DNA of 64,000 nucleotides from an uncultured Rikenella sp. (GTDB taxonomy: Bacteria; Bacteroidota; Bacteroidia; Bacteroidales; VadinHA17): positions 26,381 to 90,380 of the forward strand of contig CAZVLJ010000002.1 in assembly GCA_964627825.1 (NCBI GenBank), given 5' to 3'. Below are positions 4,232 to 59,876 of the stretch, in pieces (position 1 is the stretch's first letter; each line of letters starts with the position of its first letter). Under the pieces are notes generated by a model that had not been told where the DNA came from, ran no database searches, and worked only from the letters and a program-made list of their open reading frames with translations. A program made the translations under genes and the position numbers.

Positions 4232-4256
4232 TTCCACAAACCATATTGATATGCAG

Positions 4257-4285
4257 GTAACGGGGGGTCTGAGACCCCCCGTTAC
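4257..4285. repeat. Palindromic G6/C6 hairpin repeat, copy 1 (GTAACGGGGGGTC-tga-GACCCCCCGTTAC)
   Basis: Perfect 13-bp arms with a 3-nt loop, in the rplI/ridA convergent spacer. Confidence 0.85.
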
Positions 4286-4320
4286 TGTATACAGATGCGA
4301 ATCTGTCTGGTATGCGGGAT

Positions 4321-4347
4321 GCAACGGGTCTGAGACCCCCCCGTTAC
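4321..4347. repeat. Palindromic hairpin repeat, copy 2, with unequal homopolymers (G3 versus C7)
   Basis: GCAACGGGTC-tga-GACCCCCCCGTTAC. Same core as copy 1, but the left arm has 3 G and the right arm 7 C. Confidence 0.8.
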
Positions 4348-4351
4348 CATA

Positions 4352-10161: not shown

Positions 10162-11592
10162 ATGAACAAGTCACACGATGAGGTTTGGAATAACTGTCTG
10201 GAAATAATTCGTGACATTATTCCTTCGGCCAGCTTTAAAACCTGGTTTGAGCCTATTGTTCCTCTCAGGCTCGACAAGAACATTCTTACAATACAGGTGC
10301 CCAGCCCTTTCTTTTACGAATATCTTGAAGAGCAGTACATAGATATCCTGCGCAAGACGCTGAGGCGGGAGATTGGCAATGATGCCAAGCTTGAGTACAA
10401 CATCATAATGGAGAACTCGGGCTACACCAATGGCAAACCGTATACTGTCCGTTATCCTTCGAGGAACAAGGCTGATCTGCAGAACAAGCCAATGCAGGTT
10501 CCCTTCGAGGTGACTCAGCCGGCCATCAGGAATCCTTTCATTATTCCGGGTATAAAGAAGCTTCATTTTGATCCGAGGCTTAATCCTGATTATTCATTTA
10601 ACAATTTTGTTGAGGGTGAATGCAATCGTCTTGCCCGTTCTGCAGGTATTGCGGTAGGGAGCAATCCTGGCGGCACAGCCTTCAATCCCCTGATGATCTA
10701 TGGTGATTCAGGTCTCGGCAAGACTCATCTGGTTCAGGCCATTGGTATCCTTGTCAAGGAGAAGTTTCCTGACAAGACTGTTCTTTATGTCAATGCCAAC
10801 AAGTTCCAGACACAGTTTGTTGAATCTATCCGCAATAACAACAAGAATGATTTTCTCCATTTTTATCAGATGATTGATGTTCTGATCATTGATGACGTAC
10901 ATGAGTTTGCCGGGAAGGAGAAGACACAGGACACTTTCTTTCACATTTTCAACCATCTCCATCAGTCGGGCAAACAGCTCATCCTGACCTGTGACAAGCC
11001 GCCGGTAGAGTTGCAGGGTATGGAGCAGCGGCTTCTGTCTCGTTTCAAGTGGGGTCTGCTGGCAGACCTTCAGAAGCCCGATTATGAGACCAGGCTTGCC
11101 ATTCTCAGGAAGAAGGCCTACAATGACGGCATTGAGTTGCCCGATGAGATCTTCGAATTTCTTGCAGAGAATATATCCTCGAATATAAGGGAGCTTGAAT
11201 CTGGGCTTATCTCCCTGTATGCCCAGAGCACCCTTAACCGTAAGGAGGTGACCCTTGAGCTGGCACGCCAGATGGTAGACAGGCTGGTGAACACTCAGCG
11301 CAGGGAGATAACTATTGATTATATACAGAAGGTGGTCTGTGAATACTACAAGATCCCCGTGGAGCAGATGCAGGGCAAGACCCGCAAGAGAGAGATAGTT
11401 CAGGCAAGGCAGGTTTCCATGTATTTCTCAAAGAACCTTACAAAGGCATCACTGGCCAGCATCGGATCCATGATCGGGGGCAAGGACCACGCCACCGTGC
11501 TCCATGCCTGCAAGACCGTGAACAACCTCATTGACACTGACAGGCATTTCAGGAGCCAGATACTGGAGATAGAAAAGAAACTCAAGGTATGA
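10162..11592 (+). CDS. dnaA: Chromosomal replication initiator DnaA
   Basis: 476 aa. Walker A GDSGLGKTHL, Walker B VLIIDDVHE, C-terminal DNA-binding domain (REIVQARQVSMYFSKNLT..GGKDHATVLHACKTV). Confidence 0.97.
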   Translation: MNKSHDEVWNNCLEIIRDIIPSASFKTWFEPIVPLRLDKNILTIQVPSPFFYEYLEEQYIDILRKTLRREIGNDAKLEYNIIMENSGYTNGKPYTVRYPSRNKADLQNKPMQVPFEVTQPAIRNPFIIPGIKKLHFDPRLNPDYSFNNFVEGECNRLARSAGIAVGSNPGGTAFNPLMIYGDSGLGKTHLVQAIGILVKEKFPDKTVLYVNANKFQTQFVESIRNNNKNDFLHFYQMIDVLIIDDVHEFAGKEKTQDTFFHIFNHLHQSGKQLILTCDKPPVELQGMEQRLLSRFKWGLLADLQKPDYETRLAILRKKAYNDGIELPDEIFEFLAENISSNIRELESGLISLYAQSTLNRKEVTLELARQMVDRLVNTQRREITIDYIQKVVCEYYKIPVEQMQGKTRKREIVQARQVSMYFSKNLTKASLASIGSMIGGKDHATVLHACKTVNNLIDTDRHFRSQILEIEKKLKV

Positions 11593-12755
11593 AAGCTGAC
11601 GTAAATTATCTGAAAGAAGAGTTTTTCAGATTATACGGGGACAGGGAGAGAGAGCCTGTCCTTTTTTATTCTCCCGGAAGGGTGAACCTCATAGGTGAGC
11701 ACACTGACTACAACGGGGGATATGTTTTTCCCTGTGCCCTCGATTTCGGGACCACCCTGCTGGTCCGAAAGACCGACGAAGCGGAACTAAGACTGAACAG
11801 CATCAATTTCCCGGGTGATGTAAGAGTCCCTGTAGCTCTCAATTATATTCCTGTACCGAAGAGCTGGACCAACTATCCGGTAGGAGTGATTAATGAATTT
11901 GCCCGCAATGGCATCAGGGCTTGTGGCATGGAGATGCTTTTCATGGGTGACATTCCGAACGGCGCCGGTCTCTCTTCATCAGCATCAATTGAGATGGTCA
12001 CGGCTGTAGCTATGAATGAGCTTACCGGAGCAGGACTGGAGATGATGGAGATGGTAAGGATGAGTCAGAAGGCTGAGAACGGCTTTGTAGGGATGAACTG
12101 CGGCATAATGGACCAGTTTGCCGTGGGTTTCGGCAGGAAAGGTCATGCCATCAACCTCAACTGCGATACCCTTGAATACAGGTATGCTCCGCTGAACCTG
12201 GGAGACAGGAGGCTGGTAATCACTAACACCAATAAACGCCGGGGTCTGACTGACTCGAAGTATAACGAACGGCGCTCAGAGTGCGACAGAGCGGTGGAAC
12301 TGATCTCTGTCCACAGGCCCATACGTCACCTCAGTGAACTGACTGTTGCTGACCTCTGGATGCTTGACAGCTACATTGATGATCCCGTGGTCAGGAAGAG
12401 AGCCAGGCATGTCATTACCGAGAACGGCAGGACCCTCGATGCCATCATGGCATTGGAAAGCAATGACATAGCTCTATTCGGTAAACTGATGAACGAGTCG
12501 CATGACTCACTCTGCAATGACTATGAAGTTACAGGCATGGAGCTGGATACCCTTGTCTATGAGGGCAGGAAGCTGCCCTGGGTTATCGGTACAAGGATGA
12601 CCGGCGCCGGCTTCGGGGGATGCACTGTCTCAATTGTTGAGAATCGGCATGTGGACGAATTCATTGAGAAACTTGGTGAGATCTACGCCCGGAAGAGCGG
12701 ACTGACTGCAGACTTCTACCTTCCTGGCATCGGTGACGGAGCCCGCATTATGTAG
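11589..12755 (+). CDS. galK: Galactokinase
   Basis: GRVNLIGEHTDYNGG signature and GHMP motif PNGAGLSSSAS. The start overlaps the dnaA stop (ATGA). Confidence 0.95.
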   Translation: MKADVNYLKEEFFRLYGDREREPVLFYSPGRVNLIGEHTDYNGGYVFPCALDFGTTLLVRKTDEAELRLNSINFPGDVRVPVALNYIPVPKSWTNYPVGVINEFARNGIRACGMEMLFMGDIPNGAGLSSSASIEMVTAVAMNELTGAGLEMMEMVRMSQKAENGFVGMNCGIMDQFAVGFGRKGHAINLNCDTLEYRYAPLNLGDRRLVITNTNKRRGLTDSKYNERRSECDRAVELISVHRPIRHLSELTVADLWMLDSYIDDPVVRKRARHVITENGRTLDAIMALESNDIALFGKLMNESHDSLCNDYEVTGMELDTLVYEGRKLPWVIGTRMTGAGFGGCTVSIVENRHVDEFIEKLGEIYARKSGLTADFYLPGIGDGARIM

Positions 12756-12851
12756 GCAGTAGGCGGTAGGCAGTAGTGAAATTACTGCTAATTATGCAGT
12801 TACAGTTTATATTGTCAACACTCTTGTCTCTTGCCTCTTGCCTGCTGCCTG
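12753..12851 (+). repeat. Heptamer-armed hairpin element, family 1 (TAGGCAG-type / CTTGCCT-type arms)
   Basis: Left arm TAGGCAG TAGGCGG TAGGCAG TAGTGAA, right arm CTTGTCT CTTGCCT CTTGCCT GCTGCCT. 12754..12776 pairs with 12828..12850 (17 WC, 4 G.U, 2 mismatches). It fills the whole gap between two convergent stop codons. Confidence 0.85.
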
Positions 12852-12852
12852 A

Positions 12853-15627
12853 TCAAAGATCACGAACGCATCTGAATCCGACGGTGGCGCTGCGGTCATA
12901 GCCGGGTGAGACCAGGAGCTGCATCTGGGTCATAGAGAGCGGTTGGGGACCACCGCGCACATACCACCAGCTTGATTCCGGCCTGTACCAGCTTCCCCCC
13001 CTTATTATATTGAAGTAATAGGCTCCGTTACTGTACACATCGCCTGTCATCTGCCAGACATTCCCAACCAGATCAGCCACACCGTACGGGCTCTCTCCTT
13101 TGGGAAAGGCATCCACGGGAGTGGGTCTGCCGAACCCGTTATTGCACTTGGTTGCGTGGAACTCGTCACCCCATGGCCATTCCCTCCCATCGGTGCCCTG
13201 TGCTGCCAGCTGCCACTCCACCTCTGTGGGGAGACGCTTGCCAGCCCAGCTGGCATAGGCCCTGGCATCCTCCAGGCTGATCCAGACAACAGGGTAGCGC
13301 TCCTGCCCGGCAACAGGCAATCCCATCTCCCAGTGTCTCAGATAGTTTGATGTATCCGCCGGTATATACCTGGCAGCCATGATAAACCGAAGATATTCTT
13401 CGTTTGTCACGGGGTACCTGTCAATCAGAAAGCTGTCAGGTGTGGCAGTGATCATCATGCCGGCTGCCGGGTAAGGGACAAACTCATCGGCAGCAGAAAG
13501 GGTGTACGTAAGTGTTGCCGATGGTATGAGTACCATTCCTTCAGATATTTCTGAAGCTGATGCTGTCTTCACCGTTTCCGATACCAGCCATGGGCGTTTG
13601 CGTTCGGGAGCAACAACTCTCTCATCAAGAAGAACTCCGTCAGTGTCAACCAGTTCAATCACAATCTTTTCTCCGGCAATTCCAAATAAAGCGTCACTGT
13701 TCAGGAGGGTGTCCGCCGGAGCATTTATGCTCATTGAGATGTTGTCATAACCGGGTTTCCCTCTGTATATCAGCAGGGTTCCTTCTACAGGTGAGGAGAT
13801 GTGGATCCGGCTGCCGTGGAATTCTGCGGTTATTATTTTTGGCAGCAGGGCAATGCAGTCTATTGAGCTCTCACGCCTGGTGCCGTTAAAAGCCTGGCTC
13901 CATCCTGGTGTCTCAACCGGTGCCATCAGAGTGTTGTTAATTACAGAAGGATTGATTTCCTCATGTCTGAAGAGGGAGACAAGGTGTTTACCTGCGGTGT
14001 CTCCCGGGTTGAATAGCGGGCCGCTGTAACCCCGGTGATCCATATTGAGTACTGTAAAGATCTTCTTCTCACCAGCGTTCCAGCTATTGACATATAGTCT
14101 GTCTGCTTCGCTGCTGATCAGTGGAGTCCAGCTGCCCCCGGAGAAGGCATCGCTGTTCCTTCGTAGGATATATGTTGTTTCTGACAGGTATTCGAGGTCT
14201 TTGCGGAGCTCCTCTCCTCTTCCGCCGGGTCTGAACATATTCAGTTCAGTGCCGTATCCGTTGAAGAATGCCACGGAGATCTCACGGCGGAGCACATCCT
14301 CTCCCGCGTCAGCCACCCTGAAGATGGCAAAGTCAGGCCTGATGAGCTTATTCAGGTTCAGTTCCGGGCTGAGGAACAGGGCGTTATGTACCCTTGCGGC
14401 CACAATCCCGGGCATATCTTTAACTACCGGCATCCCCTCCGAGTACATCACCACCCCTGTGCGGACGGTATCAGCAGCCTGCTGCAGCTCTGCCGATGAC
14501 CTGCCCTCAGTATCGAGTACCACTCCGTCAGCTTCGGTCTCGGCAATTATCTGTGCCATCCCGTGCAGGTGATCTTCTTCACGTGTGCTTTTGTCCCACG
14601 GGTTATAGGCAATGAAGAAACGGCAGCCGTCTGAGCGAGCCGCTCTGCTCAGTCGCCTGAGGGCGGCAGTTCCTCCGGGCAGGTCGCGATAGAGATCCCA
14701 CTGGTTCCTGTCATCCAGGCCCAGTCGGGGCCATGTGGGCCATATCCCGTATACATCCACATGCCCAAAGAGCCTGTTGTACTCTGCAAGGTAGCTTTCG
14801 AACCCTTCCGTGCCGGTGAAGCGGTCATGGAATTCCCTGTCCCAGGCCATCTGAAGGATCATGAGATAACTTGTGCGTATCCATTTCAGGTCGTCCCGCT
14901 GATAGAGAGTCTCGTCAAATCTTTCAAGGTCATACAGCCATCGCTCTGCAAACATCAGCTTCAGTCCCTCCTGCCATTCTCCCCTGAAGAGATCAACCCA
15001 AATGTGGTAGGTAACAGAGGTTCCCGGAGGCAGTATTGTTTCATATCTGCGCATGGTTCCGTTGTCAGTGCCTGTTCGCCGGGCTAATGCCGCAACAGAG
15101 AGGTCACCGGTGGCACGGAAGGTACTGAAACCCGTCTCCCAGGCATTATCAGGGAGAATAACACGCACGGGGCTCCTGCCAGGCAGATGAAGAAAAGCTC
15201 TTGCCAGTGCAGGTGGTCCTCCGCCGGTGATAAAGGCATCATTGTTCTTTTCCCCAAAGGGAACAACATCACTGACAGTAATGGTATCATTCCAGTTATT
15301 GCGCAGCACAAGTTCTGCCAGAAAGCCCGGGTGTGATCCGCCGCGAGGGGTGTACGCAGCTTCAGCTCCTCCGGGGTAGACCATAAGGAAGCGGCTGCCT
15401 GCCAGTCCTGCAGGCACGTCATCAGACTCAAAGCTGACGCCATCAAGCCGGAAGCTGAAAAGGGGCCTTGGTGCATCCAGGTTGACGGCCGTACTGTCAT
15501 CAATGATCAGTGAGACTGCACTGGCGCCATTATCCCTGACAATACCCAGATTATGAAGCGACTGCCCTGACACTGCAAGACAGAACATGAAAAAAAAGAG
15601 GGAAAACCGAAACCTAAAGCTGCACAT
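12853..15627 (-). CDS. Secreted multidomain protein: about 690-aa N-terminal region of unknown function plus a C-terminal FGE-sulfatase (SUMF1-like) fold domain lacking the catalytic Cys pair
   Basis: Signal-like N-terminus MCSFRFRFSLFFFMFCLAVSGQ. The C-terminal part has YPVTNEEYLRFI, RLPTEVEWQLAA, GNVWQMT, RGGSWY and VGFRCV. Confidence 0.7.
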   Translation of the reverse strand: MCSFRFRFSLFFFMFCLAVSGQSLHNLGIVRDNGASAVSLIIDDSTAVNLDAPRPLFSFRLDGVSFESDDVPAGLAGSRFLMVYPGGAEAAYTPRGGSHPGFLAELVLRNNWNDTITVSDVVPFGEKNNDAFITGGGPPALARAFLHLPGRSPVRVILPDNAWETGFSTFRATGDLSVAALARRTGTDNGTMRRYETILPPGTSVTYHIWVDLFRGEWQEGLKLMFAERWLYDLERFDETLYQRDDLKWIRTSYLMILQMAWDREFHDRFTGTEGFESYLAEYNRLFGHVDVYGIWPTWPRLGLDDRNQWDLYRDLPGGTAALRRLSRAARSDGCRFFIAYNPWDKSTREEDHLHGMAQIIAETEADGVVLDTEGRSSAELQQAADTVRTGVVMYSEGMPVVKDMPGIVAARVHNALFLSPELNLNKLIRPDFAIFRVADAGEDVLRREISVAFFNGYGTELNMFRPGGRGEELRKDLEYLSETTYILRRNSDAFSGGSWTPLISSEADRLYVNSWNAGEKKIFTVLNMDHRGYSGPLFNPGDTAGKHLVSLFRHEEINPSVINNTLMAPVETPGWSQAFNGTRRESSIDCIALLPKIITAEFHGSRIHISSPVEGTLLIYRGKPGYDNISMSINAPADTLLNSDALFGIAGEKIVIELVDTDGVLLDERVVAPERKRPWLVSETVKTASASEISEGMVLIPSATLTYTLSAADEFVPYPAAGMMITATPDSFLIDRYPVTNEEYLRFIMAARYIPADTSNYLRHWEMGLPVAGQERYPVVWISLEDARAYASWAGKRLPTEVEWQLAAQGTDGREWPWGDEFHATKCNNGFGRPTPVDAFPKGESPYGVADLVGNVWQMTGDVYSNGAYYFNIIRGGSWYRPESSWWYVRGGPQPLSMTQMQLLVSPGYDRSATVGFRCVRDL

Positions 15628-37158: not shown

Positions 37159-37187
37159 ACAGGCGGAGAGATCCGCCTGTTTTTTTT
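37159..37187 (+). terminator. Rho-independent terminator (ACAGGCGG-agagat-CCGCCTGT + T8)
   Basis: Perfect 8-bp GC-rich stem followed by TTTTTTTT. Confidence 0.8.
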
Positions 37188-37191
37188 GGAT

Positions 37192-37299
37192 TAGGCAGTA
37201 GGCAGTTGGCATTAGGCAATAGTGTAACAATGATAAGGTTATTATCAAACTACCCGGCAAAAACTTCACAACTGCCTCTTGCCTATTGCCTCTTGCCTG
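37192..37299 (+). repeat. Heptamer-armed hairpin element, family 1, second copy
   Basis: Left arm TAGGCAG TAGGCAG TTGGCAT TAGGCAA TAGTGTA, right arm ACTGCCT CTTGCCT ATTGCCT CTTGCCT. 37192..37220 pairs with 37271..37299 (21 WC, 3 G.U, 5 mismatches), with a 50-nt loop. Confidence 0.85.
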
Positions 37300-37300
37300 C

Positions 37301-38437
37301 CTATGAGAGTCTGTTGCGATAATCAGTGTACCCGAACTCCCTGACCAGCCTGAATTTCTGATCAGCAGTCCAGATGCCGATATGAGGATGGGGCACACCG
37401 TTGAAGGTGGTGGTCTTGACCATTGTATAATGTATCATGTCCCAGAAGATAATCCTGTCACCGGGATTCAGTTCACGATGGAACGACCAGTCTCCCATGA
37501 AGTCACCTGAGAGGCATGAGTTCCCTCCCATGCGGTAGGTGGGTTTTCCCGGTACCGGGTCAAAGGCTCCCATGATTACAGGTTTGTATGGCATCTCGAG
37601 GCAGTCAGGCATGTGTGCTGTGAATGAAACATCAAGCATGGCGGTCTGTATTCCATCACGTACAATTATATCCTCCACAGTAGCCACCAGTTCACCTGTT
37701 TCCCATGCAAAGGCGCTTCCCGGTTCAAGGATGATATGGATGTCATACTTCTCCCTGAATGTTTTCAGCAGGCCTATGAGATGGTCAGTGTCATAATCTT
37801 TCCGTGTCATCAGATGACCACCACCCATATTGAGCCATTTCAGTTTCGGCAGGAGGTGCCCGAATCTCTTCTCAACCACCTGCAGTACCTTTTCAAGTGT
37901 ATAGGAATCAGACTCGAACAATACATGGAAGTGCAATCCTTCAACTCCTTCCGGCAGTCCGTCAGACAGTTCGTCTGCGGTAACCCCGAGCCGTGACCCG
38001 GGAGAGCACGGGTTATAGATACCTTGGGCAATCTCAGAATACTCAGGATTGATCCGCAGGCCGGGTGAGATATGTTTTCCTTCGCGCTGCAGTACCGGTG
38101 CATATTTCCTGTATTGCGCCAGGGAGTTAAAGGTGATATGCGAGCTGTAGCGAAGAATGGTTCCGAACTCTTCACGGCGGAAGGCGGGGGCATAGGTATG
38201 TGCCGGCACGCCCATCTCCTCATAGCAGAGCCTGGCTTCATGGATGGAGCTGGCTGCCGCGCCGGAGACAAATTCGCGCACTACCGGAAAGACTGACCAC
38301 ATGGCGAAGCCTTTGAATGCCAGTATGATCTCCGTGTCTGAGGTCTGTGCCACATTTTTAATGAGGAGGAGATTCCGCCTCAGCCTCTCCTCGTCAATGA
38401 CATAGCACGGAGAGGGAACCTTGGTGTAGTCAATCAT
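37301..38437 (-). CDS. nspC: Carboxynorspermidine decarboxylase
   Basis: 378 aa, PLP fold-III decarboxylase-like (PCYVIDEERLRRNL.., ILAFKGF, LNMGGG). Immediately downstream of the carboxynorspermidine dehydrogenase gene. Confidence 0.9.
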   Translation of the reverse strand: MIDYTKVPSPCYVIDEERLRRNLLLIKNVAQTSDTEIILAFKGFAMWSVFPVVREFVSGAAASSIHEARLCYEEMGVPAHTYAPAFRREEFGTILRYSSHITFNSLAQYRKYAPVLQREGKHISPGLRINPEYSEIAQGIYNPCSPGSRLGVTADELSDGLPEGVEGLHFHVLFESDSYTLEKVLQVVEKRFGHLLPKLKWLNMGGGHLMTRKDYDTDHLIGLLKTFREKYDIHIILEPGSAFAWETGELVATVEDIIVRDGIQTAMLDVSFTAHMPDCLEMPYKPVIMGAFDPVPGKPTYRMGGNSCLSGDFMGDWSFHRELNPGDRIIFWDMIHYTMVKTTTFNGVPHPHIGIWTADQKFRLVREFGYTDYRNRLS

Positions 38438-42250: not shown

Positions 42251-42289
42251 CCCGGGTTTCTGCCATAATCTGCGTCTGTATCCGCCTTT

Positions 42290-45677: not shown

Positions 45678-48629
45678 ATGAAAAACTCACTTCTGATCTC
45701 ATTTGCCGCTGTTGTGCTCTTATTGCTGACTGTATCCGGATCACGACCTGCCGAAAACAATGTCCCATGGAAGAAATATGCCGGTGACAGTAGAGTTGAC
45801 AGTATCCTTAACACGATGACAGTCAGAGAGATGATTGCACAGCTGATCTGGGTGCCGGCATGGGCTGACGAGCGGGGAGGGAACTACAGGCAGGTTGAAG
45901 AGCTTGTCACCAGGTACGGGGTGGGCGGAGTGATTTTCTTTGAAGGCTCGCGTGACTTGCAGGTTGATTACACGAGGCGCATCAGCGAGGTATCCGTGCT
46001 TCCGCTTATCATTGCCCAGGATGCCGAATGGGGCACAGGGATGAGACTGAGGGAGGTTGAAGACTTCCCATACCAGATAACACTAGGAGCAGTGCAGGAT
46101 GACTCACTCATATACAAAATGGGAGCCGCTGTTGCGTGGCAATGCCGTGATATAGGCGTCAACCTTAACCTTGCACCTGTGGCCGATGTGAACAACAATC
46201 CGCTCAACCCGGTCATCAACCACCGTTCATTCGGAGAGGATCCCGGAAGGGTGGCAGAAAAAGCCGTTATGTACATGAAGGGCATGCAGGATAACGGCAT
46301 TCTTGCCTGTGCGAAACATTTCCCGGGCCATGGCGACACCAACGTTGATTCGCACACAGGGATACCTGTTATCAGGGGTGACCGTACCCGCTTTGACAGG
46401 GTGGAGTTTGTACCATTCAGGAGGCTGGTGGATGAGGGTATCGGTGCAGTTATGACAGCTCATATCAGCGTGCCGGACCTTGATGAATCAGGTCTGCCTG
46501 CCACCTTCTCACGAAAGATTGTTACAGGCTTCCTCAGGGAGGAATCGCGCTTCAGAGGACTGATCCTCACCGATGCAATGAATATGGCCGGAGCCACAAT
46601 GACCTATCCCTCGGGGATAGCTGATGCTGAGGCGTTCAGGGCAGGCAATGACATCATTGAGTATTCAACTGACCCTGTTCGTGCCATTGATGAGATTGCC
46701 ACCAGGGTTGAGAAGGGTGAGATAGCCGTCAGCGAGGTCACTGACAGATGCAGGCGATTGCTGGAAGCGAAGCTGTGGCTTGAGAGCCTGAAAAAAAGTA
46801 AATGTGACGCGGACAGATCCGGCACGGGTATCCCTGCAGAGGAACACCCGGCGCTGAAACATGATCTCTATGCCGGCGCCATGACCCTGATAGAGAACAA
46901 TGACAACCTGGTGCCGCTGGGAAGGCTTGACCGGATGAGGATAGCCACAGTAGCTGTCAACAGGCTGGCAATGACTGAATTCCAGGGGATGACAGAGAGA
47001 TATACCAATGCTGACCACTATTATATTGATCCCTCCAATGAGCAGGGAGCCCGATATATCCTCTCCAAGCTGAAAGGTTACGACCTGGTGATTGCCGGTT
47101 TCTGCAATATGGATCAGAGGCCTACAGGGCAGTATGGTGTCACTCCGGAGCTGAACAACATCTTCAGTCAGATTGCCGCCCTTGACAGATCAGCCGTTAT
47201 ATGGTTCGGCAACCCTTATGGTATAGACAGGCTGGATATTACAAGTAAACCAACGGCCATGCTGGTGGCCTATCAGGACAACAGTTACACGCAGCAGGTG
47301 GCTGTACAGGTTCTCTTCGGTGCAATACCCGCCTCCGGGAAGCTTCCTGTCACAATCAATGAGACCTACCCGGCAGGTACAGGCATAAAGACCGCCGGAA
47401 ATCTAAGGCTGCAGTTCGGCTATCCTGAGAACGCGGGGCTCTCATCAGTAAGACTCATCAGTAAGGTAGACTCCATAGTTAACGAAGGGCTTGACACCCT
47501 CGCCTACCCCGGATGCCATGTGCTTATAGCCCGCAGGGGAGTGGTGGTACTGAACAAGTGTTACGGTTTTCATCTCTATGACAGTACCGAAGCTGTCAGT
47601 GAGCATGATCTGTGGGATCTTGCATCGGTGACAAAGGTATCTGCTGCCACGCCCTCACTGATGTTGCTGAATGACCGGGGAATCTTTGATCCGGACAGGA
47701 CACTGGGTTATTACCTGCCATGGTACCGTCTCTCGGACAAGGGCAACATGCTGCTCAGGGAGATGCTTGCCCACCAGGCCGGACTGCGGTCATGGATCCC
47801 CTTCTGGAGAAACACCCTGGAGAATGACTCCACCTTCAGGAAAGGCATCTTCAGTGACTATACCAACAAGAAGTTTGCTCTCGCGGTAACCGATTCAATG
47901 TACATGAGCAGGCGTCATCTCAAGGAGATGTTCAGGGAAATACGTGACAGTCCCACCGGGGAGAAGAAATATGTATACTCAGATCTCACCTTCATCCTTG
48001 CCGCAGAGATAATTGAGACTCTGACGGACAGTACCATTGACAAATTTGCCCCGGCAAACATCTACCGACCCATCGGGGCATTCAACATAACCTACAATCC
48101 ACTCGGGAAATATCCGCGTGATCGAATAGTGCCCACTGAATTTGACTCCCTGTTCAGGCATCAGCTTCTGCGGGGCACTGTGCACGATGAAGGGACGGCC
48201 ATGCTGGGGGGAGTCTCCGGTCATGCCGGTCTCTTTTCCACTGGCATTGATCTGCTCAAGCTGGTTGAGATGTACCGCAGGGGTGGTGAATACGGTGGAG
48301 TGCGGGTACTGAGCAGTGATGTCCTTAAGGAATATACGCGGGTACAGTATCCTGAAAATGACAACCGCAGGGCGATGGGGTTTGACAAGCCCCTGCTGGG
48401 AAATGATACAATACCGCCGGAAGAGGCTTATCCGTGTCCGTCAGCATCTCCGTCAAGCTTCGGGCATTCAGGGTTCACAGGCACTTTCATCTGGGTTGAC
48501 CCCGATGAGGAGATATCATATGTGTTCCTGAGCAACAGGGTCTACCCTACTCGGAACAACAGCAGGCTGTCAGACCTCTCCATCAGGGGCAGGATACTGC
48601 AGGCGGTGTATGATTCCAGGATTGATTGA
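45678..48629 (+). CDS. Fusion protein: GH3 beta-N-acetylhexosaminidase (NagZ-like) + class-C-type serine hydrolase (beta-lactamase family)
   Basis: GH3 part: KHFPGHGDTNVDSH and GLILTDAMNM. C-terminal half: SxxK (ASVTK), YSD, HSGFTG. Signal peptide at the N-terminus. Confidence 0.85.
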   Translation: MKNSLLISFAAVVLLLLTVSGSRPAENNVPWKKYAGDSRVDSILNTMTVREMIAQLIWVPAWADERGGNYRQVEELVTRYGVGGVIFFEGSRDLQVDYTRRISEVSVLPLIIAQDAEWGTGMRLREVEDFPYQITLGAVQDDSLIYKMGAAVAWQCRDIGVNLNLAPVADVNNNPLNPVINHRSFGEDPGRVAEKAVMYMKGMQDNGILACAKHFPGHGDTNVDSHTGIPVIRGDRTRFDRVEFVPFRRLVDEGIGAVMTAHISVPDLDESGLPATFSRKIVTGFLREESRFRGLILTDAMNMAGATMTYPSGIADAEAFRAGNDIIEYSTDPVRAIDEIATRVEKGEIAVSEVTDRCRRLLEAKLWLESLKKSKCDADRSGTGIPAEEHPALKHDLYAGAMTLIENNDNLVPLGRLDRMRIATVAVNRLAMTEFQGMTERYTNADHYYIDPSNEQGARYILSKLKGYDLVIAGFCNMDQRPTGQYGVTPELNNIFSQIAALDRSAVIWFGNPYGIDRLDITSKPTAMLVAYQDNSYTQQVAVQVLFGAIPASGKLPVTINETYPAGTGIKTAGNLRLQFGYPENAGLSSVRLISKVDSIVNEGLDTLAYPGCHVLIARRGVVVLNKCYGFHLYDSTEAVSEHDLWDLASVTKVSAATPSLMLLNDRGIFDPDRTLGYYLPWYRLSDKGNMLLREMLAHQAGLRSWIPFWRNTLENDSTFRKGIFSDYTNKKFALAVTDSMYMSRRHLKEMFREIRDSPTGEKKYVYSDLTFILAAEIIETLTDSTIDKFAPANIYRPIGAFNITYNPLGKYPRDRIVPTEFDSLFRHQLLRGTVHDEGTAMLGGVSGHAGLFSTGIDLLKLVEMYRRGGEYGGVRVLSSDVLKEYTRVQYPENDNRRAMGFDKPLLGNDTIPPEEAYPCPSASPSSFGHSGFTGTFIWVDPDEEISYVFLSNRVYPTRNNSRLSDLSIRGRILQAVYDSRID

Positions 48630-48703
48630 TTTTCGATTTGCGATGTTCGATGTTCGATTTGTGATGGGCAATTGTCAATTAATTCGCAGATCGTAGATTG
48701 TAA
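48627..48703 (+). repeat. Heptamer-armed hairpin element, family 2 (CGATTTG-type)
   Basis: TGATTTT CGATTTG CGATGTT CGATGTT CGATTTG TGATGGG ..14 nt.. TTCGCAG ATCGTAG ATTGTAA. 48627..48643 pairs with 48684..48700 (12 WC, 4 G.U, 1 mismatch). The first TGA is the stop codon of the GH3 fusion gene. Confidence 0.8.
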
Positions 48704-48707
48704 ACCG

Positions 48708-48745
48708 CACAGAAAGGAAGCTGCTTTCGCAGCTTCCTTTCTGTG
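48708..48745. terminator. Perfect 17-bp hairpin (CACAGAAAGGAAGCTGC-tttc-GCAGCTTCCTTTCTGTG) abutting the 3' end of tRNA-Leu
   Basis: Perfect inverted repeat with a 4-nt loop, starting 1 nt after the tRNA discriminator base on the minus strand. Likely a bidirectional terminator. Confidence 0.7.
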
Positions 48746-48829
48746 TGCCCAGGACAAGACTCGAACTTGCACACCGTAACCGGCACCAGCCCCTCAAGCT
48801 GGCGTGTCTACCAATTTCACCATCTGGGC
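48746..48829 (-). tRNA. tRNA-Leu (anticodon GAG)
   Basis: 84 nt, class II. GCCCAGA acceptor, D-arm GTG-AAATTGGTAGA-CAC, anticodon stem-loop CCAGC-TTGAGGG-GCTGG, long variable arm, GTTCGAGTC T-loop. One A7.C66 mismatch. No encoded CCA. Confidence 0.9.
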
Positions 48830-48838
48830 GTCTTCTCT

Positions 48839-48907
48839 GCTCAGGGCAGAGGGCTCAGGGCTCAGAGTTTTCCTGCCCTGTGCCCTGCGCTCTTTGCTCT
48901 TCGCTTC
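48839..48907 (-). repeat. Heptamer-periodic imperfect hairpin filling the tRNA-tRNA spacer
   Basis: CTCAGGG CAGAGGG CTCAGGG CTCAGAG - ttttc - CTGCCCT GTGCCCT GCGCTCT TTGCTCT TCGCTTC. In-register pairing runs from 48839..48861 with 48875..48897. Confidence 0.7.
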
Positions 48908-48913
48908 TTCCTG

Positions 48914-48997
48914 TGCCCAGAACAGGACTCGAACCTGCACATCATTGCTGACACTAGTCCCTGAAACTAGCGCGTCTACCAATTTCGCCATCTGGGC
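48914..48997 (-). tRNA. tRNA-Leu (anticodon CAG)
   Basis: 84 nt, class II. Perfect 7-bp acceptor stem GCCCAGA/TCTGGGC, anticodon stem-loop CTAGT-TTCAGGG-ACTAG, GTTCGAGTC T-loop. No encoded CCA. Confidence 0.93.
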
Positions 48998-49065
48998 CGC
49001 TTACAGGATAGAGCAGGATATTCATCCGTATGACGCCTGCCTGCTTTGATCCCTCAACGCGGGTG

Positions 49066-49073
49066 CAAAAATA
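49066..49073 (-). promoter_or_regulatory. -7 promoter box TATTTTTG for the tRNA-Leu pair
   Basis: Plus strand CAAAAATA. It lies about 69 nt upstream of the tRNA 5' end. A TTTG (plus CAAA 49090..49093) lies 16 nt further upstream. Confidence 0.45.
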
Positions 49074-49131
49074 AAGAATTTTTCTTAATCAAATATCCCT
49101 GATACTAAAATGACGAAAAATATTTGTGCTC

Positions 49132-49530
49132 TCAGAAGCCCGGATCAAGTCTAACTCCATTTACTGTCTCGAAGTACCTGAAATAGTAGTAGAGCTTGCG
49201 TTCAAACTCCAGGCCGTAGTCCTTGTAAGAATCATAGTCGATATAGCTCGAGTAGAGGTCTCCATATCTTCTCGGATGAGCATACCGGTAGTTCCATTCT
49301 CTTACGTGGATGGCATTCTTGTTTTTGTAGTATTCAAGCGAATGCTGATGAGTCGGTTGCATCAGGAACCATGAATCAAATCCCTGATCCATTACCACAA
49401 GGTCATATTCAGTGCTGTCAGACTCGTGCTGTATCATAAGGTCCTGGTCATCACCGCCCTGACGGGGCGAGAAGAGAGCACATGACGGCAGGATCAGTGA
49501 CAATAAGGTAAAGTACATTAGTTTCTTCAT
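49132..49530 (-). CDS. Hypothetical lipoprotein
   Basis: MKKLMYFTLLSLILPSC lipobox. The mature part is Tyr/Asp-rich. No family recognised with confidence. The longest ORF reaches 49581. Confidence 0.6.
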   Translation of the reverse strand: MKKLMYFTLLSLILPSCALFSPRQGGDDQDLMIQHESDSTEYDLVVMDQGFDSWFLMQPTHQHSLEYYKNKNAIHVREWNYRYAHPRRYGDLYSSYIDYDSYKDYGLEFERKLYYYFRYFETVNGVRLDPGF

Positions 49531-52223: not shown

Positions 52224-52247
52224 TTCCAGACCTTCAGACCCTCAGAC
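52224..52247 (+). repeat. Three tandem 8-nt units (TTCCAGAC CTTCAGAC CCTCAGAC) right after the lysA stop
   Basis: Read directly; starts 1 nt after TAA 52221..52223. Confidence 0.7.
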
Positions 52248-52248
52248 T

Positions 52249-52281
52249 AAAAAAAAAGCTGCATACCTGCAGCTTCTTTTT
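52249..52281. terminator. Bidirectional rho-independent terminator (A9-AAGCTGCA-tacc-TGCAGCTT-CTTTTT)
   Basis: 8-bp stem flanked by an A-run and a T-run, between convergent lysA and the small membrane protein gene. Confidence 0.8.
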
Positions 52282-52287
52282 CACTTG

Positions 52288-52500
52288 TTATGGTTTTTTC
52301 CTGCGTTTTCTGACCGGATCAGAGAAGAGCAGCATCAACAGGCCGAAGGCGAGAGTGCCAATTCCCGAGATCAGGTTAATATTCACATTGAGTGACCTGG
52401 CGTACATGGGGTCATGCCCCATGGTGGCCAGCCCGTAGATCAGTATTATGAGTCCCACTATTGAGAACATCAGGCCTATTGGAAATCTTATATCCAGCAT
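52288..52500 (-). CDS. Small two-TM membrane protein downstream of the SSS transporter
   Basis: 70 aa with two hydrophobic helices and a basic tail RKRRKKP, 18 nt downstream of the transporter gene. Confidence 0.55.
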   Translation of the reverse strand: MLDIRFPIGLMFSIVGLIILIYGLATMGHDPMYARSLNVNINLISGIGTLAFGLLMLLFSDPVRKRRKKP

Positions 52501-58042: not shown

Positions 58043-58390
58043 ATGCCAAGAGCAACAAACGCACCAGCATCGAAGGCAAGAAGGAAGAAGATCTTAAAAC
58101 AGACAAAGGGGTATTTTGGCAACAATGCTAACGTCTATACCGTTGCCAAGAACGTACTTGAAAAAGGTCTTGCCTATTCTTACCGTGACCGTAAAGACAA
58201 GAAAGGCCAGTTCCGCGCACTGTGGATCCAGAGGATCAACGCCGGGGCTCGTCTTCACGGAATGAGTTACTCACAGTTTATCGGCGGGCTTGAGAAGAAG
58301 GGTATCTCCCTTAACCGCAAGACCCTGGCCGATCTGGCAATGAATCACCCGGAAGCCTTCAAGGCAATCGTGGATAAAGTCAAGGAGTAA
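58043..58390 (+). CDS. rplT: 50S ribosomal protein L20
   Basis: 115 aa; [47 protein letters not shown]. Confidence 0.96.
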
Positions 58391-58391
58391 G

Positions 58392-58419
58392 AAAAAGCGG
58401 GCTGCGGCCCGCTTTTTTT
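58392..58419. terminator. Bidirectional rho-independent terminator (A5-GCGGGC-tgcg-GCCCGC-T7)
   Basis: GC stem flanked by A5 and T7, immediately after the rplT stop. Confidence 0.85.
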
Positions 58420-58420
58420 A

Positions 58421-58478
58421 TTGTCTATTGCCAATCTGCGATTGTCGGATCAAATCGTAAATCGTAAATCGCAAATCA
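58421..58478 (-). repeat. Heptamer-armed hairpin element, family 2, in lepB-sense orientation
   Basis: The minus strand reads TGATTTG CGATTTA CGATTTA CGATTTG ATCCGAC AATCGCA GATTGGC AATAGAC. 58467..58478 pairs with 58432..58443 (9 WC, 3 G.U). The first TGA is the lepB stop codon. Confidence 0.8.
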
Positions 58479-59876
58479 TCTCTTGGCTCCCTTGAAGAAT
58501 CTTTTAAATCTTATCTTTTTGAAGCCCTGTGCCTCTTTGTCAACAGAGAGCCAGACCAGCACCGGGCGGCCCACTATGTGATCTTCAGGCACAAAGCCCC
58601 AGAAGCGTGAGTCAGCTGAATCATGCCGGTTATCGCCCATCATCCAGTAGTAATCCATCTTGAATGTGTAACTGTCGGCCGGTACCCCGTTGATATAAAT
58701 CACCGTGTCACGTATCTCAAGGTCATTCTCCTCGTAGATATCTATTACAGAGGTATAGAAGCTGATGTTGGTCATATCAAGTTTCACCGTGGTTCCCCTT
58801 TTCGGAATCCAGAGAGGCCCGAAGTGGTCCTCATTCCACTTGTACTGAGGATCATGCGGAAAAACCGACGGGGAATATTCACCCGGCCTTCGATAGTCAG
58901 CCTCAATACCTGTCACATTGGCAAAGCCTGAAATAAGTTCGGCATTCTTCAGGGTCATCGGGAGCCTGTAAACAGTTCCTGATAGCATCAGCGACTGGTC
59001 AGACTTTGATATCCCCATTCTTTCAAAGGCTTTCGGGTTGATGCGGGTACCATTGGTGCGGACATAGTAGGATGTCTGTTGCGAATCATGCACCGGAGCT
59101 TCTGTACCGTTGACATACAGTGTTCCTCCGATGATCCTGACTGTGTCTCCGGGAATACCAACACATCTCTTTACGTAGTTATCACGTCTGTCAACAGGTC
59201 TGTTGATAACTGTATACTCATTCCATATCATCTGCCGGGCCCGGCTGTAATATTCTTCCTTGCTCTTCAACGGCCTCCCCGCCCTGATGTCTTCCTTGGT
59301 AAGCACTTCAATGCGGTCACGAAGAATTTCGTAATAGCTTATTGCCTGCTGTTCAAGACAAACAGTATCTCCCGCGGGAAAGTTGAAGACAACTATATCA
59401 TCATTCTTCACATGCCCGAATCCCTTGAGTCTCTTGTATTTCCAGTGAACAAGATCAGACCATGATTTGCCTTTGCCCCCGGTAAGCGGCAAAGTATGTG
59501 AGGTGAATGGGAAGGCAATTGGGGTATTGGGCATTCTGGGTCCGTATGCCACCTTGCTTACAGCAAGATGATCACCCACCAGCAGGGTCTTTTCCATTGA
59601 GGGGGTGGGAATGCGGTAATTCTGGAACAGGAAGATATTTATAAGTGTCACGGCAATCACGGCAAAAATCAATGCATCAAGCCATTCTATAAGTGTGCTG
59701 TTCTTGCCGTTCCGTTTTTTCCAGAACGCCCAGTTAACCTTTTTGCTGACGTAGATGTCAAACACTATCGGGAGACCGAGCAGAAGCCAGTAGTTGCCCA
59801 CCCAGATGACCCACAGCAGGTACAGTACGCCTGCCACGCCAAACTTGAAGTATTTGTTCCGCAGAAGTTCTTTCAT
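58476..59876 (-). CDS. lepB: Signal peptidase I (S26 family)
   Basis: Catalytic Ser box IPTPSMEKTLLVGD, Lys box YVKRCVGIPGD, GDNRHDSADSRFWGFVP; 466 aa with a large insertion domain. Confidence 0.9.
   Translation of the reverse strand: MKELLRNKYFKFGVAGVLYLLWVIWVGNYWLLLGLPIVFDIYVSKKVNWAFWKKRNGKNSTLIEWLDALIFAVIAVTLINIFLFQNYRIPTPSMEKTLLVGDHLAVSKVAYGPRMPNTPIAFPFTSHTLPLTGGKGKSWSDLVHWKYKRLKGFGHVKNDDIVVFNFPAGDTVCLEQQAISYYEILRDRIEVLTKEDIRAGRPLKSKEEYYSRARQMIWNEYTVINRPVDRRDNYVKRCVGIPGDTVRIIGGTLYVNGTEAPVHDSQQTSYYVRTNGTRINPKAFERMGISKSDQSLMLSGTVYRLPMTLKNAELISGFANVTGIEADYRRPGEYSPSVFPHDPQYKWNEDHFGPLWIPKRGTTVKLDMTNISFYTSVIDIYEENDLEIRDTVIYINGVPADSYTFKMDYYWMMGDNRHDSADSRFWGFVPEDHIVGRPVLVWLSVDKEAQGFKKIRFKRFFKGAKR

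Follow-up and report, generated by a model that had tools for sequence, protein, structure and literature searches.

A heptamer-repeat hairpin at the stop codon of a GH3/beta-lactamase fusion gene in a genus of uncultured Bacteroidales

We analysed a heptamer-repeat hairpin, here called E3, that starts at the stop codon of a GH3/beta-lactamase fusion gene in a 64,000-nucleotide stretch of DNA from an uncultured Rikenella sp. of the Bacteroidales (contig CAZVLJ010000002.1, positions 26,381 to 90,380). This 64-kb stretch is the window, and W denotes its sequence in comparisons between species. E3 (48627..48703, + strand) is a real, conserved element and a further case of a known, functionally unexplained class of heptamer inverted pairs. 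A hairpin of the same repeat family (family 2, CGATTTG-type) stands at this stop codon in all five species of the genus that were sampled, with the stop codon as the in-phase first unit, and the number and sequence of the units vary between species on both arms. On balance, we read E3 as a stem-loop of the 3′ untranslated region (3′ UTR) made of a heptamer arm and its inverted wobble complement, and as the inverted-pair form of a dispersed, lineage-conserved element of the type known as short tandemly repeated repetitive (STRR) sequences or long simple sequence repeats (LSSRs). This 3′-UTR stem-loop is probably of slippage origin, and an RNA-level role for it is plausible but unproven.

Of the long simple repeats found in bacteria, those with heptanucleotide units form the commonest class. 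The locus described here is an unusually clean comparative series, in which the units at one stop codon turn over across five species and the hairpin, its phase and its sense-strand advantage are kept. It also offers clean losses and one traceable copy event, making both RNA-level selection on pairing and spread by gene conversion testable.

Anatomy and pairing of E3

E3 occupies the entire interval from the GH3 stop codon to a bidirectional terminator shared with a convergent tRNA-Leu gene. The features of this interval are as follows.

45678..48629, + strand: GH3/beta-lactamase fusion gene, 983 aa, Pfam domains PF00933 (Glyco_hydro_3) and PF00144 (Beta-lactamase); C-terminus ...DSRID, stop TGA at 48627-48629
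48627..48661, + strand: E3 5′ arm, TGATTTT CGATTTG CGATGTT CGATGTT CGATTTG; unit 1 is the stop codon plus 4 nt
48662..48682, + strand: E3 loop, degenerate in-phase units TGATGGG CAATTGT CAATTAA
48683..48703, + strand: E3 3′ arm, TTCGCAG ATCGTAG ATTGTAA, a wobble complement of the 5′ arm in which 48684-48700 pairs with 48643-48627
48706..48747: perfect hairpin, 17 perfect pairs between 48708-48724 and 48729-48745, extendable to 19
48745..48829, − strand: tRNA-Leu(GAG), found by ARAGORN and as Rfam RF00005, convergent with the GH3 gene

A preliminary description of E3, made from the letters of the window, had recognized heptamer units with the TGA stop as the first of them and a separate perfect 17-bp hairpin close behind. 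Both hold, and the register proves to run unbroken from 48627 through 11 units, over the full 77 nt. Tandem Repeats Finder reports a period of 7 with 4.7 copies at 48628-48660, and with at least three head-to-tail 7-nt units in non-coding DNA E3 qualifies as a heptanucleotide simple sequence repeat. Its unit family recurs, as expected of such repeats, at a second element of the window (E5, below) and, in sister genomes, at the E3 and E5 sites, at a further gene end (c9) and in the loop of an element called E2. Period 7 is the only tandem period enriched in the window (7 arrays, against 0-3 for every other period), and the E3 unit motif occurs there 5 times where 0.32 occurrences are expected.

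The stem that had been proposed between 48627-48643 and 48684-48700 was reproduced exactly: its 17 positions hold 12 Watson–Crick pairs, 4 G·U pairs and 1 mismatch. An alternative register with a shorter loop, 48655-48664 with 48684-48693, is likewise as first described, with 8 Watson–Crick and 2 G·U pairs. RNAfold sets the base of the stem at G48628, within the stop codon, and forms the heptamer stem only on the + (gene-sense) strand (−20.0 versus −9.1 kcal/mol). Of 5000 shuffles, 29 offered a partner within 77 nt that is complementary at 16 of 17 positions; of 5000 random window positions, 2 did. With three 3′ units as the wobble complement of the 5′ arm and 16 of 17 positions paired, E3 has the layout of an inverted pair, that is, convergent arrays of the same unit able to form a stem-loop. 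It fails a strict reverse-complement test (at most one mismatch per unit) because of its G·U positions. A search of 48300-49200 against Rfam 15, even at E ≤ 1, matched the two tRNAs only and no family at E3.

The loop units of E3 are similar to GGCAAT-type units of E5 and of a locus in a Planctomycetota metagenome-assembled genome (MAG; L009, 282-352), in which CGATTTG arrays are paired with CGGCAAT-type arrays. GGCAAT units adjoin both family-2 elements of the window (48665-48680 and 58430-58445), as they do in the Planctomycetota locus.

The GH3 gene and E3 are identical in five metagenome contigs from Logan and ENA (L001-L005); these come from independent assemblies, one of them 0.34% divergent. 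All five contigs stop inside tRNA-Leu, 143-202 nt past the GH3 gene. Short-read assemblies seem to break at the duplicated tRNA-Leu and repeat region, and in practice the repeats and duplicated tRNA-Leu genes may mark break points in such assemblies of this organism.

Conservation, turnover, loss and copying in the genus

Homologues of the GH3 protein are numerous in Bacteroidales MAGs from digesters, and syntenic loci were taken for four species (L206, L209, L211 and L212). A tree of nine concatenated proteins, with L129 (68%) as outgroup, has the form ((W,L206),((L211,L212),L209)). Average amino-acid identity to the window is 95% for L206 and about 88% for the L211/L212/L209 clade, and spans 87-95% across the genus. 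In this genus the copies of E3 go with stop codons, T(G/A)A standing in phase as unit 1. At the E3 site the first units read as follows.

W and L206: TGATTTT
L209: TGAATTG CGATTGG
L211: TAATTTG GGATTTG
L212: TGAGTTG CGATTTG

A consensus stem is common to all five orthologues, and its base lies at the stop codon or at most 1 nt from it in every one, well within the 15 nt by which a stable hairpin can be called stop-proximal. The sense strand is the more stable in 5/5, by 1.4 to 10.9 kcal/mol, in keeping with the earlier claims that the stop codon forms the base of the stem and that the wobble pairs belong to the gene-sense RNA. Among hairpins at the E2 and E5 sites, the sense strand is more stable in five of seven and about equal in the other two. 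The L212 orthologue of E3 is a near-perfect stem of about 23 bp (z = −8.4). Between W and L206 the 5′ arm is identical and the 3′ arm differs at three paired positions (48689 G/A, 48696 G/A and 48699 T/C); all three differences convert a Watson–Crick pair to G·U in the sense RNA, so that the pair is kept in the sense RNA only. Sense-strand folding and pair-keeping substitutions would be consistent with constraint at the RNA level.

Beside these, in the loop of the L211 orthologue of E2 (about 1369-1402), UUGCGA is self-complementary through G·U pairs, which lets one CGAUUUG array fold back in RNA even where no inverted partner is present.

E3 is one of five heptamer-array hairpins in the window (E1-E5), four of which (E1, E2, E3 and E5) begin at a stop codon. 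The other four elements, and the terminator next to E5, are listed here.

12753..12851: E1, family 1, TAGGCAG ... CTCTTGC, reaching from the TAG stop of galK (11589-12755, + strand) to a point 2 nt short of the stop of gene 12853-15627, which is convergent
37190..37303, − strand: E2, family 1, with TAGGCAG at the TAG stop of gene 37301-38437; the convergent + strand gene facing it has a canonical terminator at 37160-37187
48839..48910: E4, GGGCTCA / TGCCCTG-CGCTCTT units, in the spacer between two tRNA-Leu genes
58390..58419, + strand: canonical bidirectional terminator of rplT, adjoining E5
58421..58478, − strand: E5, family 2, TGATTTG CGATTTA CGATTTA CGATTTG ... AATCGCA GATTGGC AATAGAC AAT, starting at the TGA stop of a signal peptidase (lepB-like) gene, 58476-59876

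Three unrelated unit families are present together in the window. E1, E2, E3 and E5 fill 4 of its 11 convergent junctions and none of about 36 other junctions, by our own tally from the list of open reading frames. E5, which had been singled out for comparison as a lepB-proximal copy, has the same architecture as E3 at its TGA stop. Further copies that the preliminary description had predicted include, besides E5, the orthologues at the GH3 stop in the four sister species, a paralogue at another stop codon in L212 and many arrays in other phyla.

Heptamer elements shrink and spread as whole units in this genus. The rplT terminator of L206 abuts the lepB TAA stop, with no E5 between them. We had at first taken E5, from the comparison of W with L206, for a fresh 57-nt insertion at the stop codon; this was dropped because orthologous E5 elements in L211 and L212, together with the tree, favour a loss. 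E4 has orthologues in L209 and L129 and is absent from L206, L211 and L212, where a 9-nt spacer separates the tRNA genes, and the 3′ arm of E2 is lost in L206. By parsimony on the tree, the absence of both E4 and E5 from L206 is read as clean loss.

Elements have also been gained. In L211 (6410-6655), the junction between a TrkH gene and an NTP-transferase gene holds an insert of arrays with periods of 8 and 7, about 200 nt in all; in the window (42251-42289) and in L206 this junction is empty and 39 nt long. The NTP-transferase gene of L211 is shorter by 7 aa, and its TAG stop opens a TAGGCAA array as the first unit; the stop codon seems to have been captured by the repeat. L211 also carries a family-2 array nested in the E2 loop. 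In L212, a family-2 hairpin also stands at the stop of another gene, at the c9 site, and this copy matches the L212 E3 at about 85% (an estimate from the alignment) over about 110 nt. The similarity spans the stop codon, the loop TTCCA and the sequence up to the end of the terminator, the flanks are unrelated, and the sister species L211 keeps other arrays before the same c9 terminator. From these alignments, the copying of this hairpin-plus-terminator cassette looks like non-allelic gene conversion seeded by the shared terminator, not transposition. Unit families swap between species at c9, which holds period-8 CAGACC arrays, family 1 or family 2.

An element resembling a miniature inverted-repeat transposable element (MITE) or a REPIN, with heptamer arrays as terminal inverted repeats inserted by a transposase at TAA/TGA stops with a short target duplication, is a very unlikely account of E3. 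Such an element would fit a dispersed family with inverted arms, a left flank of T(G/A)A and a right flank of TAA (E3, E5 and c9), a filled E5 site of TGA/TAA...TAA-AAAA against TAA-AAAA in L206, and the appearance of elements at new sites (L212 c9, L211 c7 and the E2 loop of L211). However, different copies have unrelated loops and no conserved core in common beyond the repeats, and the TAA on the right is accounted for by the final arm unit (..CAAAT) running into the A-tract of the terminator. Moreover, the single traceable gain was co-copied with the neighbouring terminator, resembling gene conversion, and the L206 site is by parsimony a loss and not an empty target. No transposase was seen, though no search for one was made.

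Several observations concern other repeats of the window. E4 folds more strongly on the strand antisense to the tRNAs (−40.9 versus −32.3 kcal/mol), and its unit number is 7+6 in L129 (2257-2375) against about 3+4 in the window; the L209 copy lies at about 13030-13130. The convergent junction at 4232-4351 contains two copies of a G+C-rich palindrome (4255-4345), one perfect and one imperfect (GTAACGGGGGGTCTGAGACCCCCCGTTAC), which form a hairpin-repeat family distinct from the heptamer ones. At 52224-52300 a TAA stop is followed by a short period-8 array (TTCCAGACC TTCAGACC CTCAGAC) and then by a bidirectional terminator, AAAAAAAAAGCTGCATACCTGCAGCTTCTTTTT; in L209 and L211 the same site holds family-1 arrays, and in L212 it holds a family-2 hairpin.

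E3 and the downstream terminator

The preliminary description had not noticed that E3 lies upstream of a real bidirectional terminator. Such repeats also have published precedent (below). The perfect hairpin at 48706..48747 derives from a bidirectional terminator common to the GH3 gene and tRNA-Leu: relatives carry AAAAAAAGCTGC...GCAGCTTTTTT at this site, and in the window the A- and U-tracts have turned into added stem. A canonical terminator of A-tract, stem and U-tract directly follows E3 in all four relatives, where the E3 hairpin ends exactly at the A-tract, and canonical terminators also lie just past E2 and E5. At E2, E3 and E5 alike, the element has a stop codon on one side and, on the other, the hairpin terminator that serves the convergent gene; none of the three has a U-tail.

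The terminator stem GCTGC...GCAGC occurs at two unlinked gene ends, the E3 and c9 sites, in every species (48706-48747 and 52258-52290 in the window). In the window and L206 the copy beside E3 has its A- and U-tracts mutated to a longer stem and no longer fits the canonical pattern.

E3 is not an intrinsic terminator; it lies between the stop codon and the real one. That E3 itself terminates transcription of the GH3 gene, as an intrinsic terminator lacking a U-tract or as a Rho pause hairpin, is highly improbable. E3 resembles intrinsic terminators, including tandem-hairpin types, in being a hairpin directly 3′ of a gene that is followed by a second hairpin, and E1 is the sole structure between its two convergent genes. 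In other phyla, too, arrays that abut stop codons lack a canonical terminator nearby (below), a further point in favour of this role. But an intrinsic terminator has a G+C-rich stem-loop and a U-tract, whereas E3 has a weak stem rich in A/U and G·U pairs and a tail, ACCGCAC, without a U-tract. A terminator scan called no terminator-like site at 48627-48703, nor at 48706-48747. The canonical terminator that comes immediately after E3 in all four relatives, as at E2 and E5, also argues against this role, and the lower stem of E3 would be held open by the terminating ribosome.

Heptamer repeats in other lineages and the possible role of E3

One genome per species was scanned for three CGATKTD units, which returned at least 120 loci; the figures given here for other phyla apply to the matches listed. 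These come from Verrucomicrobiota, Acidobacteriota, Planctomycetota, Bacteroidota, Chloroflexota, Cyanobacteria, Nitrospirota and others. Period 7 is dominant in the listed loci (at least 324 arrays, against at most 20 for each other period, with about 90 different units), and many loci share the same CGATTTN...NAAATCG hairpin with unrelated loops. Judged by eye, an inverted partner accompanies about 20-25 of 123 CGATKTD arrays. Where the upstream gene is in the sense orientation, the array starts between −10 and +14 nt from the end of the stop codon in 25/52 cases. There is no consistent strand bias relative to the CGATTTN orientation across phyla; palindromes read the same arm first on both strands, so orientation statistics are meaningful for single arrays only. 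An RNAduplex search for partner arms in 120 listed loci was too noisy to use, as U/G-rich arrays pair with nearly anything, and a strict unit-based test was used in its place.

The three things on which the preliminary description had staked itself, further copies, a link to stop codons and maintained pairing, were each looked for and found, the last two most clearly within the genus. There the stop codon is in phase as unit 1 and pairing is maintained despite turnover of the units; across phyla, arrays are not confined to gene 3′ ends and few have a strict inverted partner (below). An order of stop codon, array and canonical terminator was considered as a cross-phylum architecture and rejected: 0/28 stop-abutting arrays have a terminator within 220 nt, which indicates that this architecture is specific to the genus. 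Among relatives found via threonyl-tRNA synthetase, 80 loci (about 1 Mb) show no general enrichment of period 7, indicating that the richness in heptamers is lineage-specific. In L127 (5721-5940), GCGGCGA-type and GCCCTGA-type units build a heptamer hairpin of very large size, each arm about 120 nt long, in a promoter region between divergent genes, so heptamer hairpins in this bacterial family are not limited to 3′ ends.

Our literature searches found no description of such elements in Bacteroidales, and the closest precedents come from other groups. Among the long simple repeats of prokaryotes, heptanucleotide ones are the most abundant, and they are ascribed to slippage of the polymerase (Mrazek 2007, via PMC4679880 and PMC4692102). 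Xanthomonas has about 185 GGGAATC arrays, among them 70-75 inverted pairs per genome, and Nostoc has GGGGA(C/T)T repeats (Rehm et al. 2015, PMC4692102). The Xanthomonas arrays, typically of about 4 units, are strongly biased to lie 0-50 nt from or over a stop codon, are conserved in position and variable in length between species, and are mostly transcribed (PMC4692102). E3 shares with these systems the intergenic tandem heptamers and the bias towards stop codons, and with Xanthomonas the convergent arrays able to form a stem-loop; its orthologues likewise keep their position, with the stop as unit 1 in 5/5 and differing unit numbers. By contrast, the Xanthomonas units are G-rich and were studied as G-quadruplexes, which the units found here (CGATTTG, TAGGCAG and GGGCTCA) cannot form. 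CGATTTG and CGATGTT lack G-tracts altogether, and G-quadruplexes are the focus of that study rather than a general trait of heptamer repeats (PMC4692102). E3 differs from the Xanthomonas pairs also in having the stop codon as in-phase unit 1, a wobble and not an exact complement as 3′ arm, a position before a canonical terminator and an uncultured Bacteroidales host.

Cyanobacterial STRR sequences and heptanucleotide LSSRs, as they are summarized in later papers (Mazel 1990; Mrazek 2007; via PMC4692102 and PMC4679880), resemble E3 in being intergenic period-7 arrays, with few unit families at many loci and an origin by slippage; in those summaries they are direct arrays, and the hairpin layout and stop-codon phase of E3 fall outside the definition. 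Direct repeats of TAACTGA are found in Beggiatoaceae, Cyanobacteria and five Bacteroidetes, in most cases just before start codons (MacGregor 2015, PMC4679880). They too number hundreds of intergenic heptamer sites with a patchy spread across phyla, and some overlap stop codons because the unit itself contains stop codons, but almost all are direct (with one inverted case) and the role proposed for them is control of translation initiation (PMC4679880).

A further likeness is to the repetitive extragenic palindromes (REPs), bacterial interspersed mosaic elements (BIMEs) and REPINs of Enterobacteria and Pseudomonas, dispersed imperfect palindromes at gene 3′ ends and convergent junctions, for which gene conversion recalls the event at L212 c9. 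As 3′ hairpins of transcripts these elements stabilize the upstream mRNA, and evolution by gene conversion has been proposed for them. However, REPs have a conserved sequence of 20-40 nt and a REP-associated tyrosine transposase (RAYT), whereas only the 7-nt periodicity is common to the elements here: E3 and E5, like E1 and E2, share only units and short motifs, with differing loops, and the loops in other phyla are unrelated.

On our preferred reading of E3 as a 3′-UTR stem-loop of slippage origin, the 7-nt units would arise by replication slippage. The complementarity of the arms, and any homogenization between them, would be maintained by selection on the sense-strand RNA, by template switching between arms or by both, and new copies would come through non-allelic gene conversion seeded by shared terminator sequence. 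E3 would be transcribed as the first of two 3′ hairpins. Because the base of the stem is the stop codon, a terminating ribosome would have to melt the lower stem, and the surplus 5′ units would then let E3 re-pair in a shifted register (48655-48664). Given the stem base at the stop and this second register, the most likely function in our analysis would be that of a stop-proximal 3′ structure that modulates the end of translation or the stability of the mRNA 3′ end, as stop-proximal REPs do in Escherichia coli, and not termination itself. When a REP lies less than 16 nt from a stop codon, it makes ribosomes stall and reduces translation (PMC12306157).

Several points weigh against this reading. 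The total folding energy of 48620-48706 is ordinary for its G/U-rich composition (z = −0.59; 49/200 shuffles as good), so the case is built on register-specific pairing and on orthologues, not on energy; the folding of the L211 orthologue is also weak (z = −1.9). The five orthologues are related and not independent, and covariation across them is near-uninformative because the repeats align and pair in many registers. A mutation bias linked to transcription (A>G and C>T on the non-template strand) could explain the excess of G·U pairs in the sense RNA. No heptamer hairpin stands at seven of the 11 convergent junctions, and the sister species L206 has lost E4, E5 and the E2 3′ arm without replacement, which marks the elements as dispensable. 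In other phyla, only about 16% of period-7 arrays have a strict inverted partner and arrays occur in all intergenic types (++ 31, −− 32, convergent 18 and divergent 16). Finally, transcription of E3 in this organism, and any role of it as RNA, are inferred from sequence.

Many of these points would fit the main alternative, a possible but doubtful one to our minds, in which the repeats are neutral or selfish products of slippage and template switching, tolerated between stop codon and terminator and having no RNA function, and the boundary at the stop marks the start of selection on the protein. No two species agree in copy number and units, one family takes the place of another at c9, and L206 has clean whole-element losses; the unexceptional folding energy of E3 in the window, the dominance of period 7 in many phyla with about 90 units in all intergenic types, the giant L127 hairpin between divergent genes and the published explanation by slippage (Mrazek 2007, via PMC4679880 and PMC4692102) all suit it as well. 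Against it, E3 is kept at the same stop in five species despite fast internal turnover, the sense strand is favoured in 10/12 hairpins and about equal in 2/12, and the arm substitutions preserve pairing in 3/3 cases. Nor would random local slippage predict the same unit families at unlinked loci, and the elements of the window lie at convergent junctions only.

A bolder extension of the stem-loop reading seems to us unlikely. E3 would then belong to a self-copying gene-end cassette of stop codon, repeat hairpin and sometimes terminator, which supplies genes with their stop, is selected as sense RNA and tunes translation termination or mRNA decay, its tandem 5′ units re-registering the stem around the ribosome. 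This would amount to an unrecognized REP-like system in Bacteroidales, possibly extending to the phyla with CGATTTN...NAAATCG hairpins.

It is barely credible that E3 serves as an array of sites for a multimeric protein that binds RNA or DNA in a 7-nt register, such as a cold-shock, RRM or HutP-like protein, or gyrase as at REP/BIME sequences. The strict period of 7 across many phyla would suit such a protein, and family 1 reads UAG-N4-UAG-N4-UAG, which we take to resemble a HutP site. Yet about 90 unrelated units have only the period in common, three unrelated families coexist in one window, units drift freely between species and no candidate protein was identified. For TAACTGA repeats, the cold-shock protein Csp, S1 or CsrA has been proposed as the binding partner (MacGregor, PMC4679880).

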